Made by a program: the position numbers and the translations under genes. The notes below the pieces were generated by a model that was not told where the DNA came from, searched no databases, and was given only the letters and a program-made list of their open reading frames with translations. A stretch of 64,000 bases of DNA, from the NCBI GenBank assembly GCA_030429545.1, contig JAUIFF010000001.1, positions 275,599 to 339,598 on the forward strand. Direction: 5' to 3'. This document shows, in pieces, positions 33,320-35,118 of the stretch. The DNA comes from Polyangia bacterium (GTDB lineage: Bacteria; Myxococcota_A; Polyangia; Nannocystales; Nannocystaceae). Position 1 is the stretch's first letter, and every line of letters starts with the position of its first letter.

Positions 33320-33377
33320 CGGGTCGACTCACGCGCGTTTCGATGGGACGGCTGGTTCGACGTGGTAGATTTTCAAA

Positions 33378-34541
33378 ATGAGCGGCCACCCGAAAATCAC
33401 CCGTATAAAGCTCGAGAGATATCCATCACTCGGGGCAGATATTGAGTTGGAGCTAGCGGACAAAGTCACGTTGCTCGTGGGGCGCAACGCTTCTGGGAAG
33501 TCACTCGTGTTTGAGAACCTACAACTAGCGATGTATGCGGCGATTAAGGGTCCCGGGTGGAGTGTGGTGGGAGAGAGTAGGGCGTTTGAGTGTACGGTTA
33601 ATATCGCAGACAATGCTTATACGTATCGCTATGAGTTTGAAGTTGTTGATAGTGAGAGTCCCACTGACATGCCAATCGTTCGATGGGTCGAGTGGTGCAA
33701 GTGCGGCGAGCGAATGGTCTGGGAGGTTTCTGACGGAGACGTTTCTTTCGAAGGAAAGCCCCCGAGTATGCAGTTACCAGAAGGAACTGGCCTGCTCATG
33801 GTACGGACAGTGAAAGAGTCTTCGGTTGCGGATGTTGCAGACAAGATCCGAGTGGTCTTTTCAAATCTAAAACATTTGCATGCAGGGCTTCCACGTTCGT
33901 TTTCGGACCAACGTCAGGAGGTGCACCTCGTCAAGGTCGATGACATTAAGAAGGCACGGCGTGGATACTCAAGGCTTTCTCTGCTTGTTGGTCGAATCGT
34001 AACTCTATATGAAAGTGATAAAGATGTATTATTTAGGCAGCTAATTGAGCGGTTTAAGCGTGTCTCAGGTCAGATGTTGAACGTTGTTTTCTATCACCGG
34101 TCTCACGAAAGGCAGTCTGCCCCCTCTGGAGAGGACTATGCAGATGTCTTGGTTGACGAACATAATGTCGGGGTCGCTTCTGATGGGACCCTGCGTACAC
34201 TGGAGCTGCTACTCGGTTTGACTGATGCACATCCCGGAGCGTTACTTACGATCGAAGAACCAGAGACGGGGATCCATCCGTATATGTTAGGTCGTGTACT
34301 CAACGAAGTTGAGAGCGGGAGCCTCTCCTCCCAGATTATATTGTCAACGCACTCTGTTCAGGTATTGGATTGGGCTGCAAGCCAGCCAGGAGTTGTTCGA
34401 CTGGTTGAGCGAAAAGATCGTGTTACTACGGTTCGCAAGCTCTCAGAGGACGAACTTGACTGCGCCCGCACATATTTGCAAAATGATGGGTCATTTGGCG
34501 AGTATATTTTTGGGGGAGGGATTGATACTGATGGCGACTAA
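33378..34541 (+). CDS. AAA_21/ABC-type ATPase (OLD/AbiLi/AriA-like) in a low-G+C island
   Basis: Walker A LLVGRNASGKS, a Q-loop, a signature-like SDGTLRTLELLLGL, Walker B/D-loop LLTIEEPETGIHP and an H-loop ILSTHS. Locally reduced G+C with AT-rich codons (tta, ttt, ata) unlike the flanking genes. Confidence 0.8.
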   Translation: MSGHPKITRIKLERYPSLGADIELELADKVTLLVGRNASGKSLVFENLQLAMYAAIKGPGWSVVGESRAFECTVNIADNAYTYRYEFEVVDSESPTDMPIVRWVEWCKCGERMVWEVSDGDVSFEGKPPSMQLPEGTGLLMVRTVKESSVADVADKIRVVFSNLKHLHAGLPRSFSDQRQEVHLVKVDDIKKARRGYSRLSLLVGRIVTLYESDKDVLFRQLIERFKRVSGQMLNVVFYHRSHERQSAPSGEDYADVLVDEHNVGVASDGTLRTLELLLGLTDAHPGALLTIEEPETGIHPYMLGRVLNEVESGSLSSQIILSTHSVQVLDWAASQPGVVRLVERKDRVTTVRKLSEDELDCARTYLQNDGSFGEYIFGGGIDTDGD

Positions 34542-35118
34542 GTCCAGCATAGGAGTCATTGTTGAGGACCAGACAGACTTAGGTGCTATCAAAAGCATCA
34601 TCCGGCGGCTACTTAGCGACCCTGCTCGAAAGGTTTTGGGTAAGGCAAGCAGAGGTTGCAGTATGATGCGGCGAAAGGCGAAAGCGAACGTCTTGTTGCT
34701 CGTACAACGGGGATGCGACGCGATTATTATCGTCCATGATCTCGATCGCAACCCGCAGAATCAACAGCTGAATGATAAGGACCAGCTACGTCATAAGCTT
34801 GAGTCAACGATAGAGGTGCCAGACGGCATACAACGCTGCATTTGTATTCCCGTCGAAGAGCTCGAAGCCTGGTTCCTTGCGGATGCATCGGTAGTGTCCA
34901 AAGTGAGTCGCGGGAGCTGTTCCCATCCGTATCCAAGTCCCGAGCGGGTCGCTAAACCCAAAGAGCTACTTTTTCGACTGTCACGGGACAGCCGAGGGAA
35001 AGCTCGGTATTCTACAAATGACAATGAGGTATTAGCGAAGGAGCTGGACCTCGATATTTGCGCCGAACGGTGTCCCTCGTTTGCCGAATTAAGAGATTTT
35101 GTGCTCGAGTGCGTCTAA
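34531..35118 (+). CDS. Small TOPRIM-like protein (DUF4276/AbiLii-like), partner of the upstream ATPase
   Basis: Starts MATKSSIGVIVEDQTDLGAIKSII (a conserved Glu in a beta-strand). Then DAIIIVHDLDRNPQ (DxD). Then IPVEELEAWFLAD. This is the TOPRIM Glu ... DxD ... Glu/Asp arrangement. It overlaps the ATPase gene end by 11 bp and shares the low G+C. Its stop overlaps the stop of the convergent gene. Confidence 0.55.
   Translation: MATKSSIGVIVEDQTDLGAIKSIIRRLLSDPARKVLGKASRGCSMMRRKAKANVLLLVQRGCDAIIIVHDLDRNPQNQQLNDKDQLRHKLESTIEVPDGIQRCICIPVEELEAWFLADASVVSKVSRGSCSHPYPSPERVAKPKELLFRLSRDSRGKARYSTNDNEVLAKELDLDICAERCPSFAELRDFVLECV

Follow-up and report, generated by a model that had tools for sequence, protein, structure and literature searches.

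The closest described relative of the gene pair reported here is HEC-01 (Hma-embedded candidate 01), which couples an ABC ATPase with a TOPRIM protein (Payne et al., bioRxiv 10.1101/2024.01.29.577857). In E. coli, the HEC-01 representative first studied protected against none of the phages tested (bioRxiv 10.1101/2024.01.29.577857), but another report, short on detail, found that one representative protects E. coli B from one or more of the phages T4, T5 and T7 (PMC12881386). The published tests thus disagree on whether HEC-01 defends its host. MADS3-4 and AbiL have been classed with the defence systems that pair an ABC ATPase with a TOPRIM protein (PMC11464382); in the MADS models MAD3 and MAD4 are accessory components, and deletion of mad3 or mad4 weakens MADS defence. 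DUF4276 and Mad4 have been assigned to the Toprim superfamily, whose E/DxD residues they share, and DUF4276 domains serve as effector modules in Menshen NsnC (PMC12065111).

The pair considered here lies in a Nannocystaceae (myxobacterial) chromosome. Within the stretch of 64,000 nucleotides that was analysed, hereafter the window, two overlapping open reading frames on the + strand form an island of low G+C, with the following features:

33282-33318 (about), + strand: hairpin resembling an intrinsic terminator at the end of the MVP-like gene, forming the left edge of the island, from an RNA fold
33363-33371 (feature span 33363-33377), + strand: possible extended -10 element, TGgTAGATT, 6 nt ahead of the gene 1 ATG, read from the sequence
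33378-34541, + strand: gene 1, an ABC-type ATPase of 387 aa, AAA_21/AAA_15 family, HEC-01A-like
34531-34541, + strand: 11-nt overlap between genes 1 and 2; a GGAGG-like stretch lies some 11 nt upstream
34531-35118, + strand: gene 2, 195 aa plus stop, a DUF4276 protein with a predicted TOPRIM-superfamily nuclease-like fold, HEC-01B-like
35115-35118, no strand assigned: right junction, where two stop codons overlap, TAA of gene 2 (35116-35118) and that of the convergent gene, which reads CTA on the + strand (35115-35117)

An earlier sequence-only reading had already recognised two overlapping + strand frames at these positions, a terminator to their left (33289-33319) and a stop-codon overlap with a convergent gene to their right, and all of these are present; the length of gene 2, given there as 196 aa, is corrected to 195 aa plus the stop. 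The left hairpin has a GC-rich core forming a 9-bp stem, lengthened by pairing of the A/T tracts, and folds strongly at -34.8 kcal/mol (z = -4.5), a value equalled by none of 200 shuffled sequences; a simple terminator scan did not pick it up. The nearest other species retains a hairpin of this form. Homology with that species stops just past the hairpin and restarts exactly at the stop codon of the right junction, where the convergent Stig1/Laminin_G gene encodes a secreted protein. Genes 1 and 2 have the organisation of an operon, and their translation is likely to be coupled. No Shine-Dalgarno sequence is visible before the gene 1 ATG, which suggests, with low confidence, a leaderless or very short-leader transcript; the extended -10 candidate at 33363-33371 was read by eye from the letters and was not reported by a consensus promoter scan.

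The gene 1 product matches AAA_21 in Pfam at E 1.1e-19 (72 bits, cut-off 27) and AAA_15 at E 1.5e-10, in agreement with its first assignment as an AAA_21 ABC ATPase. The nucleotide-binding motifs named in that assignment, Walker A, Walker B with the D-loop, and the H-loop, are all in place, and invariance within them was scored in an alignment of 14 sequences:

33480-33503, + strand: Walker A (P-loop) GRNASGKS, residues 35-42; G35, N37, G40, K41 and S42 invariant
34176-34196, + strand: ABC signature-like motif ASDGTLR, residues 267-273; D269, G270 and R273 invariant
34242-34280, + strand: Walker B plus D-loop LLTIEEPETGIHP, residues 289-301; E293, E294, P295, E296, T297, H300 and P301 invariant
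34344-34355, + strand: H-loop STHS, residues 323-326; T324, H325 and S326 invariant

The AlphaFold model (pLDDT 85.6) matches the ATPase heads of PtuA, OLD, SMC and Rad50 in Foldseek at E values of about 1e-11, and it carries a beta-rich Insert 1 at residues 68-124. With every nucleotide-binding motif intact and a predicted ABC head fold, gene 1 has what is expected of an ABC ATPase of the AAA_21/AAA_15 family. Among 114 PADLOC matches the best was the HEC-01A model PDLC04178 (E 9.7e-28, 95 bits), the match being strongest only across residues 267-365; eleven more HEC-01A models also match. The AriA models (E 1.4e-20) and the AbiLi model (E 8e-19) gave weaker matches than HEC-01A, and the matches to GajA and mad4 were weaker than those to HEC-01A/HEC-01B, the GajA profiles covering the ATPase motifs only. 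The closest non-self relative found in a search among some 15 billion proteins is 37-38% identical.

Gene 2, for which a resemblance to DUF4276 had been suspected, matches that family in Pfam over its full length (E 4.7e-14). In PADLOC it matches the HEC-01B model PDLC04196 (E 5.9e-12, profile positions 3-186 of 197), and most of its 20 matches there are HEC-01B models. The TOPRIM-like arrangement of a Glu, a DxD and an acidic stretch that had been pointed out from the translation is borne out by the following motifs, with conservation taken from an alignment of 62 DUF4276 family sequences:

34555-34578, + strand: TOPRIM Glu, VIVEDQTD, residues 9-16, after the strand at 6-11 (end of beta-1); E12, D13, T15 and D16 at least 90% conserved
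34729-34752, + strand: TOPRIM DxD, IVHDLDRN, residues 67-74, after the strand at 62-68 (beta-3); D70 and D72 invariant
34855-34884, + strand: acidic cluster EELEAWFLAD, residues 109-118, after the strand at 101-105 (beta-4); E109, E110, E112, A113 and W114 invariant
34957-34965, + strand: P143-K144-E145, start of the C-terminal helical region, invariant

Lysine K144 may serve in catalysis or in substrate binding. The predicted model of gene 2 is confident (pLDDT 94) and has the strand order beta1, beta2, beta3, beta4 of a TOPRIM domain, a point on which structure prediction might have spoken against the earlier assignment. The model shows a three-layer alpha/beta fold containing a four-stranded parallel sheet, with a conserved Glu after beta-1 and a DxD after beta-3, and E12, D70xD72 and E109/E110/E112 are located at strand ends. 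The catalytic residues and the fold are thus predicted to be those of a TOPRIM metal-dependent nuclease. Among PDB entries, Foldseek ranks first a 306-residue chain, chain A in the PARIS complex, which we take to be AriB. A link of DUF4276 to solved structures at the level of sequence was also sought and abandoned, as a profile search of PDB sequences returned only a spurious GPCR match (E 1.2). The clade to which gene 2 belongs has four to five conserved cysteines (C62, C105, C177, C181 and usually C43).

Given that both proteins find their best matches in the HEC-01A and HEC-01B models, the pair is, by profile comparison, HEC-01, a candidate anti-phage system already catalogued in PADLOC-DB v2.0.0; the suggestion that it might be an uncatalogued variant is therefore set aside. 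As in HEC-01, a co-directional AAA_21 ABC ATPase gene lies adjacent to that of a small TOPRIM-like DUF4276 protein that keeps the TOPRIM metal-site residues, the two being on the same strand with the 11-nt overlap, and the beta-sheet of Insert 1 fits the published description of HEC-01A (bioRxiv 10.1101/2024.01.29.577857). The pair differs from HEC-01 as described in that it lies outside any Hachiman (Hma) system or defence island, in its host, a myxobacterium, and in an ATPase so divergent that its identity to proteins of the searched databases does not exceed 38%.

The sequence-only reading had also drawn attention to AbiL, PARIS and OLD-type modules of an ATPase plus a TOPRIM protein, and this likeness is supported, whereas membership in AbiL, PARIS, Gabija or Septu proper, each of which had been offered as a candidate, is not: the partner has no match to AriB, AbiLii or RloB. 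PARIS is likewise a two-gene pair of an ABC ATPase (AAA_15/21) and a TOPRIM nuclease, and AriA profiles match gene 1. However, gene 2 is a DUF4276 protein of 195 aa whereas AriB is a DUF4435 protein of about 300 aa, gene 2 matches neither AriB in PADLOC nor DUF4435 in Pfam, and the gene 1 protein falls some 100 residues short of the length of AriA and lacks a long helical insertion. AbiL shares the arrangement of an ATPase gene and a TOPRIM-superfamily partner gene, and its AbiLi profile matches gene 1 as noted, but gene 2 found neither AbiLii nor RloB in Pfam or PADLOC; among its relatives, one of 62 family members gave a marginal RloB match (E 0.077). OLD and GajA have the ATPase and TOPRIM domains fused in one polypeptide, whereas here there are two separate frames; the similarity to Gabija and OLD is confined to the ATPase motifs, and neither a GajB-type helicase partner nor any UvrD-like gene is present within 10 kb. 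In Septu and the retron PtuAB pairs the partner is a PtuB HNH protein and not DUF4276, and gene 1 reaches 19 bits against a PtuA equivalog cut-off of 500. A retron or other non-coding RNA partner was considered and rejected, as an Rfam scan of the whole window found no family.

Our preferred reading, to which we assign a probability of about 0.6, is that the island is a horizontally acquired, self-contained two-gene operon of HEC-01 type, encoding a TOPRIM nuclease that would be controlled by its ATPase much as in PARIS, OLD or Gabija. By analogy with those systems we infer an anti-phage function in this host, together with an interaction of the two proteins, a trigger and a substrate. PARIS offers a plausible mechanistic template, in which a sequestered nuclease is freed upon sensing of a trigger. 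In the mechanism that seems most likely, the ATPase would oligomerise and hold or regulate the nuclease; its variable insert regions would sense a phage-derived trigger; ATP binding or hydrolysis would then free or activate the TOPRIM nuclease, which would cleave nucleic acid, either RNA (tRNA or another kind, on the model of PARIS) or DNA (on that of OLD and Gabija). Infection would be halted in this way, perhaps at the expense of the cell itself.

The pair recurs in other genomes. In all seven other loci examined the ATPase gene lies directly upstream of the DUF4276 gene, with overlaps of 4-20 nt or short gaps, as a stand-alone two-gene arrangement with no MADS or Menshen genes and in unrelated neighbourhoods. 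One pair adjoins an IS1-like gene, another the MazEF and TacAT modules, and a third a phage terminase, TnpB and a GIY-YIG gene on a single IMG/VR viral contig that was found by a degenerate-pattern scan; a tblastn search with gene 2 returned nothing from the plasmids of PLSDB or the phages of INPHARED. In five of five high-G+C hosts the pairs are 7-20 G+C points under their flanks, whereas in cyanobacteria they equal them. Among these pairs the nuclease partner is much better conserved, at about 50% identity, whereas the ATPase stands at about 35%, which fits the ATPase being a fast-evolving sensor.

The same compact, scattered cassette, found at times beside toxin-antitoxin modules or IS elements or within a phage, could also be a selfish addiction element resembling a toxin-antitoxin system, in which a TOPRIM toxin is restrained by the ATPase and persistence comes from harmful loss or from competition between elements, with no anti-phage benefit to the host. 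The failure of HEC-01 to defend in its first test (bioRxiv 10.1101/2024.01.29.577857) would agree with this, as would the Pfam description of AAA_21 as a "putative AbiEii toxin, Type IV TA system"; that label, however, is historical and does not suit an ABC ATPase of the gene 1 kind. The PARIS, MADS3-4 and AbiL pairs have been tied to phage defence by experiment (PMC11464382), and one HEC-01 representative protected against phage (PMC12881386). We consider a purely selfish element unlikely; addiction and abortive infection can, moreover, coexist.

That the pair was acquired horizontally by the Nannocystaceae chromosome is well supported by its composition and distribution, and the initial description of the island as a transferred cassette holds. 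The G+C content of the island is 0.506 against a window mean of 0.611 (sd 0.0226, over 1741-nt windows across the 64 kb), a deficit of about 4.6 sd; no other stretch of the 64 kb is as low, and the island is indeed AT-richer than its surroundings. GC3 is 0.50 and 0.55 in the island genes against 0.69-0.76 in the four flanking genes. Per 1000 codons, island against flanks, TTA stands at 12 against 0.5, CTA at 17 against 4.9, ATA at 8.6 against 1.6, AGG at 6.8 against 1.6, AGA at 5.1 against 0 and TAT at 22 against 6.5. The enrichment claimed earlier for TTA, ATA and AGG is thus seen, whereas TTT, named along with them, occurs at 20.5 against 20.1 and is not enriched in the island.

The slot between the terminator of the MVP-like gene and the 3' end of the convergent gene is variable. 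In the nearest other species (MVP 89-90% identical) it is occupied by a CDF-like gene; conserved vertical synteny with native codon usage, which would have spoken against transfer, is not what is seen. Gene 2 is 49.7% identical to another Nannocystaceae copy, 51.1% to that of Sorangium and 44-46% to the cyanobacterial copies; that it was judged no closer to the first than to the others was counted in favour of horizontal transfer. Among 80 MVP loci taken from other genomes, not one carries the pair at a distance of 10 kb or less from the MVP gene. The adjacency of the island to the MVP-like gene, reported from the outset, is hence real but incidental, and a functional link between the two was rejected on the same count. 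The gene calls over 10 kb on each side hold no integrase or transposase and no other defence or mobile-element genes, PADLOC found no match in six neighbouring or nearby proteins, no tRNA lies in the window, and the repeats near the island ends are only short two-copy direct or inverted matches of chance quality. The island is here outside a defence island.

It is quite unlikely, in our estimation, that the cassette represents a functionally distinct lineage of HEC-01. Were it one, its divergent ATPase (at most 38% identity) may recognise a trigger specific to myxophages, and the conserved cysteines of gene 2 might form a metal or redox-sensitive site regulating a TOPRIM RNase or DNase; to our knowledge, no cysteine-based regulatory site of this kind is on record for PARIS, OLD or Gabija. 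On the same view, the consistently low G+C and rare codons of such cassettes in high-G+C hosts could, beyond being a trace of transfer, constitute a selected brake on expression of a toxic effector.

The strongly non-native codon usage, which might limit expression, speaks in favour of the idea that the pair is an orphaned sub-module of a larger MADS- or Menshen-like system, inactive or only partly functional alone, or else a silent remnant of transfer near decay. MADS has the same pair of domains, Mad3 being an AAA_21-type ATPase and Mad4 a DUF4276 homologue, both of them accessory in its models, and DUF4276 serves Menshen NsnC as an effector module (PMC12065111); weak MAD3 and mad4 matches were found here. 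The scores, however, are far under the NCBIfam equivalog cut-offs (56.9 bits against 420 for MAD3, 17.5 against 160 for MAD4), and no methyltransferase or other mad gene lies nearby; membership in MADS proper is not supported. The seven stand-alone loci also speak against such an origin, and three independent assemblies of the species all have both frames unbroken, with the full set of catalytic residues. The pattern of strain-level divergence shows, in addition, that the island is older than the split of the sampled strains. An orphaned or decaying module is accordingly very unlikely.

RecF is an SMC-like ABC ATPase and RecR a TOPRIM-domain protein, so that an ATPase with a small TOPRIM partner formally parallels this pair. 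A housekeeping accessory of DNA repair or recombination, acting on host DNA ends like RecF with RecR or the SbcCD/Rad50 complexes, is nonetheless highly improbable, for although the gene 1 model resembles SMC and Rad50 heads and gives weak RecF and Rad50 profile matches, those scores are far under cut-offs, its best matches are defence-system ATPases, the gene 2 family keeps the full catalytic Glu/DxD/Glu set, unlike RecR, and the pair is foreign in composition, missing from the nearest species and patchy across phyla.

On the preferred reading of a HEC-01-type operon, the locus adds a stand-alone Nannocystaceae example to a candidate type with contradictory activity tests, and the ATPase-DUF4276 pair travels as an autonomous cassette through Myxococcota, cyanobacteria and at least one phage, independently of Hachiman and MADS. 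Should HEC-01 prove to be a defence system, natural variants such as these would be useful for mapping trigger specificity; if not, finding the locus amounts to routine annotation of a candidate system already known.

Two further observations concern related sequences. In one related contig the gene caller gave a 290-aa ATPase and no DUF4276 protein, as if the pair were becoming pseudogenes there, but translation shows both frames to be intact, and the truncation is therefore a gene-calling artefact. Differences among strains are clustered in the DUF4276 gene; diversifying selection was considered as their cause and rejected, the cluster marking a recombination breakpoint from which divergence runs on rightward of the island.

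Both proteins of the two-gene island find their best PADLOC-DB v2 matches in the HEC-01 models (HEC-01A, E 9.7e-28; HEC-01B, E 5.9e-12), with AriA, AbiLi, GajA and mad4 weaker; the pair is therefore not an uncatalogued variant, as had been suggested from the sequence, and is a rather divergent example of HEC-01, a candidate type already catalogued. HEC-01 ("Hma-embedded candidate 01") is the name given by Payne et al. to an ABC ATPase accompanied by a TOPRIM protein, a pair that in their assay protected against 0 of the phages tested (bioRxiv 10.1101/2024.01.29.577857). In a later study, E. 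coli B was reportedly protected against at least one of T4, T5 and T7 by one HEC-01 representative, recovered from a cold-seep metagenome (PMC12881386), and in other surveys HEC-01 is still an unvalidated candidate. Other identities were considered and rejected: the locus is not MADS, because its NCBIfam equivalog scores lie far under the cut-offs (MAD3, 57 bits versus 420; MAD4, 17.5 bits versus 160), nor is it PARIS or AbiL, because gene 2 has no match to the AriB/DUF4435 or AbiLii/RloB models in Pfam and PADLOC.

Elements of the island and its edges
33378-34541, plus strand: gene 1, ABC-type ATPase, 387 aa
34531-35118, plus strand: gene 2, DUF4276 protein, 195 aa
~33282-33318: strong hairpin after the MVP-like gene, left edge of the island (-34.8 kcal/mol, z -4.5)
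35116-35118: TAA of gene 2, overlapping the stop codon of the convergent Stig1/Pentaxin/Laminin_G gene, right edge of the island

The two genes overlap by 11 nt, implying co-expression. Across its 1741 nt the island has a G+C of 0.506 which, given a mean of 0.611 and a standard deviation of 0.0226 for all 1741-nt windows of the 64 kb, lies about 4.6 standard deviations below the mean; no other stretch of that length in the window is as low. The drop is located at third codon positions (GC3 of 0.50 and 0.55, versus 0.69-0.76 in four flanking genes), and TTA, CTA, ATA, AGG, AGA and TAT are enriched 3- to 20-fold among the island codons. The sequence-only reading had described an AT-rich island with atypical codons, a terminator on its left and a convergent gene whose stop codon overlaps that of gene 2; all of this stands, as do the motifs quoted for both proteins, except that of the codons named TTA, ATA and AGG are enriched and TTT showed no enrichment in the codon-usage comparison. 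We also noted a 20-nt imperfect direct repeat (80% identical), of which one copy, ATTTTCAAAATGAGCGGCCA (33369-33388), spans the ATPase start codon and the other, ATTTGCAAAATGATGGGTCA (34474-34493), spans an in-frame ATG upstream of gene 2 that one gene caller chose as the start, giving a 210-aa version; the repeat could be chance or a start-site signal common to both genes.

Gene 1 is, as proposed, an AAA_21 ABC-type ATPase (Pfam AAA_21, E 1.1e-19, together with AAA_15). In an alignment of the window protein with its 13 closest full-length relatives, Walker A (G35, N37, G40, K41, S42), the signature-like D269-G270..R273, Walker B with the D-loop (E293-E294-P295-E296-T297..H300-P301) and the H-loop (T324-H325-S326) are all invariant. 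The AlphaFold model (pLDDT 85.6) carries a beta-rich insertion at 68-124 and a short helical one at ~189-230, and Foldseek groups it with PtuA (Septu/retron), OLD, SMC and Rad50 ATPase heads (E ~1e-11).

Gene 2 matches Pfam DUF4276 over its full length (E 4.7e-14, covering 1-188 of the 192 profile positions). Its confident predicted model (pLDDT 94.1, pTM 0.89) has four strands (6-11, 34-39, 62-68, 101-105) alternating with helices, followed by a helical C-terminal region; the conserved E12 and D13 are found where strand 1 ends, strand 3 is followed by the invariant D70 and D72 and strand 4 by the invariant E109, E110 and E112, and P143-K144-E145 is invariant too. In the model, the conserved acidic residues sit where the metal ligands of TOPRIM domains are found. 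Among PDB structures, Foldseek ranks first chain A of the PARIS complex 8ux9 (306 residues; E 3.9e-3), which from its length we take to be AriB. Two published analyses assign DUF4276 (Mad4) to the Toprim superfamily and point to the same E/DxD residues (PMC12065111; bioRxiv 10.1101/2024.01.29.577857), and the fold and residue placement of gene 2 agree with both. The Pfam match, the strand order of the model and the E/DxD/acidic positions bear out the earlier DUF4276/TOPRIM-like assignment. A useful by-product is the presence of several conserved cysteines in the putative nuclease of this clade: C105, C177 and C181 are invariant and C43 and C62 at least 90% conserved, and C62, C105, C177 and C181 are retained also in the more distant DUF4276 copies of seven other loci (L083 to L089). 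These cysteines may together make up a metal or redox site.

The closest relatives of the pair with an understood mechanism are PARIS, OLD and Gabija. It is established that in PARIS the TOPRIM nuclease AriB is sequestered by the ABC ATPase AriA until a phage trigger frees it to cleave tRNA, and that in OLD and Gabija the ATPase and TOPRIM are fused, giving a DNA nuclease (PMC11464382). By analogy, the 387-aa ATPase would sense and regulate, with the 195-aa TOPRIM protein as the effector, and a defence function of the pair is plausible. Outside the species, DUF4276 finds relatives of up to 54% identity and the ATPase of no more than 35-38%; for the ATPase just 92 of 1.84 billion cluster representatives reach E <= 1e-30. 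This higher conservation of DUF4276 fits a conserved effector and a fast-evolving sensor, and so does the way ATPase conservation centres on the C-terminal half and on the motifs that bind the nucleotide. Alternatively, the pair may be a selfish addiction or TA-like cassette, and an addiction-type role is compatible with abortive infection.

The MVP-like neighbour places the host in the Nannocystaceae (Myxococcota). The same arrangement, with both ORFs intact, is found in two public assemblies of the same species (L001, 99.3% identical; L002, 99.9%). In L003, the nearest different species, the MVP protein is 89-90% identical to that of the window (best tblastn segments), with identities of 82% for the upstream gene and 76% for the convergent one; homology stops just past the terminator and restarts exactly at the convergent stop codon. 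The slot between them holds a 330-aa gene of native G+C (12613-13605, minus strand, opposite in direction to the pair), which judged by its sequence looks like a cation-diffusion-facilitator (CDF-like) gene and has no homologue in the window or at any other MVP locus. Because L003 holds this different gene there, the slot that follows the MVP terminator is a variable site. No ATPase or DUF4276 homologue was found in L003, and the pair is missing from all 80 MVP loci examined in other genomes.

Elsewhere, the order ATPase then DUF4276 is kept in all seven other loci examined, each with different neighbours.

Neighbourhoods of the pair in other genomes
Two myxobacterial contigs: metabolic genes
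Sorangium: IS1-like gene
Anabaena: MazEF and TacAT modules
Viral contig L086:1-10630 (IMGVR_UViG_3300044900_000004): pair directly upstream of the terminase large subunit

The viral pair is flanked by TnpB (IS605 OrfB), a Schlafen AlbA_2 protein and a GIY-YIG endonuclease, a setting that suggests an accessory or defence hotspot carried by the phage; its DUF4276 shares 45% identity with the window protein and 74% with that of L088, a metagenome-assembled contig of cyanobacterial character. In all five high-G+C hosts (L083-L087, including the viral contig) the pair lies 7-20 G+C points under its 5-kb flanks (Sorangium, 0.542 versus 0.743), and in the two cyanobacterial genomes (L088-L089) it equals them at ~0.40. 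The AT-rich pairs may have come repeatedly from low-G+C donors, or AT-rich coding with rare codons may be selected for in a toxic effector. The window DUF4276 is 49.7% identical to another Nannocystaceae copy, 51.1% to that of Sorangium and 44-46% to the cyanobacterial copies, and the clade is star-like.

Given the differing L003 slot that lacks the pair, the scattered loci with different neighbourhoods, the foreign composition below that of the flanks and the star-like DUF4276 clade, the horizontal acquisition proposed for the island is well supported, and the cassette behaves as an autonomous mobile unit. The window has no tRNA, the gene calls for 10 kb on either side include no integrase, and the repeats near the ends of the island are not convincing. 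The loci give evidence that HEC-01-like pairs circulate as stand-alone cassettes, one of them phage-borne, and show that they are systematically AT-rich in high-G+C hosts. The pair could instead be an orphaned or silent sub-module, but both ORFs and their catalytic residues are intact in three assemblies and the stand-alone architecture recurs, which speaks against decay or a need for MADS/Menshen partners. A RecF/RecR-like or Rad50-like repair factor is a further alternative, whose core role is countered by the patchy, compositionally foreign distribution.

When window positions 23669-40994 were compared with L001 and L002, the left 11 kb (23.5-34.55 kb, including the whole ATPase gene) held 1 mismatch, and from 34590 rightwards divergence jumped to ~0.5-5%. 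All seven differences between L002 and the window lie within the DUF4276 gene, and four of the seven alter the amino acid. The pattern suggests a homologous-recombination breakpoint within the island, between 34541 and 34590, and it implies that the island is older than the split of these strains.

The MVP-like gene to the left (30722-33265), with its MVP_shoulder, Vault_3 and Band_7 domains, shows 56-90% identity over 80 genomes (L003-L082) from Myxococcota, Bacteroidota, Chloroflexota, Bacillota, Riflebacteria, Vulcanimicrobiota and Sericytochromatia, a degree of conservation between phyla that is unusually high. The convergent gene (35115-36791, minus strand) encodes Cys-rich Stig1-like repeats and a Laminin_G_3/Pentaxin domain, and its product appears to be secreted; its start is uncertain, because the mechanical ORF has 558 aa (GTG start) versus 379 aa in the public gene call. 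The window has a second low-G+C patch (0.543 over 10001-11000), with a 180-aa ORF (10103-10645, minus strand) that adjoins a purL-like gene (11042-14074); the ORF has no match in PADLOC or PHROGs and may be another small acquired gene.
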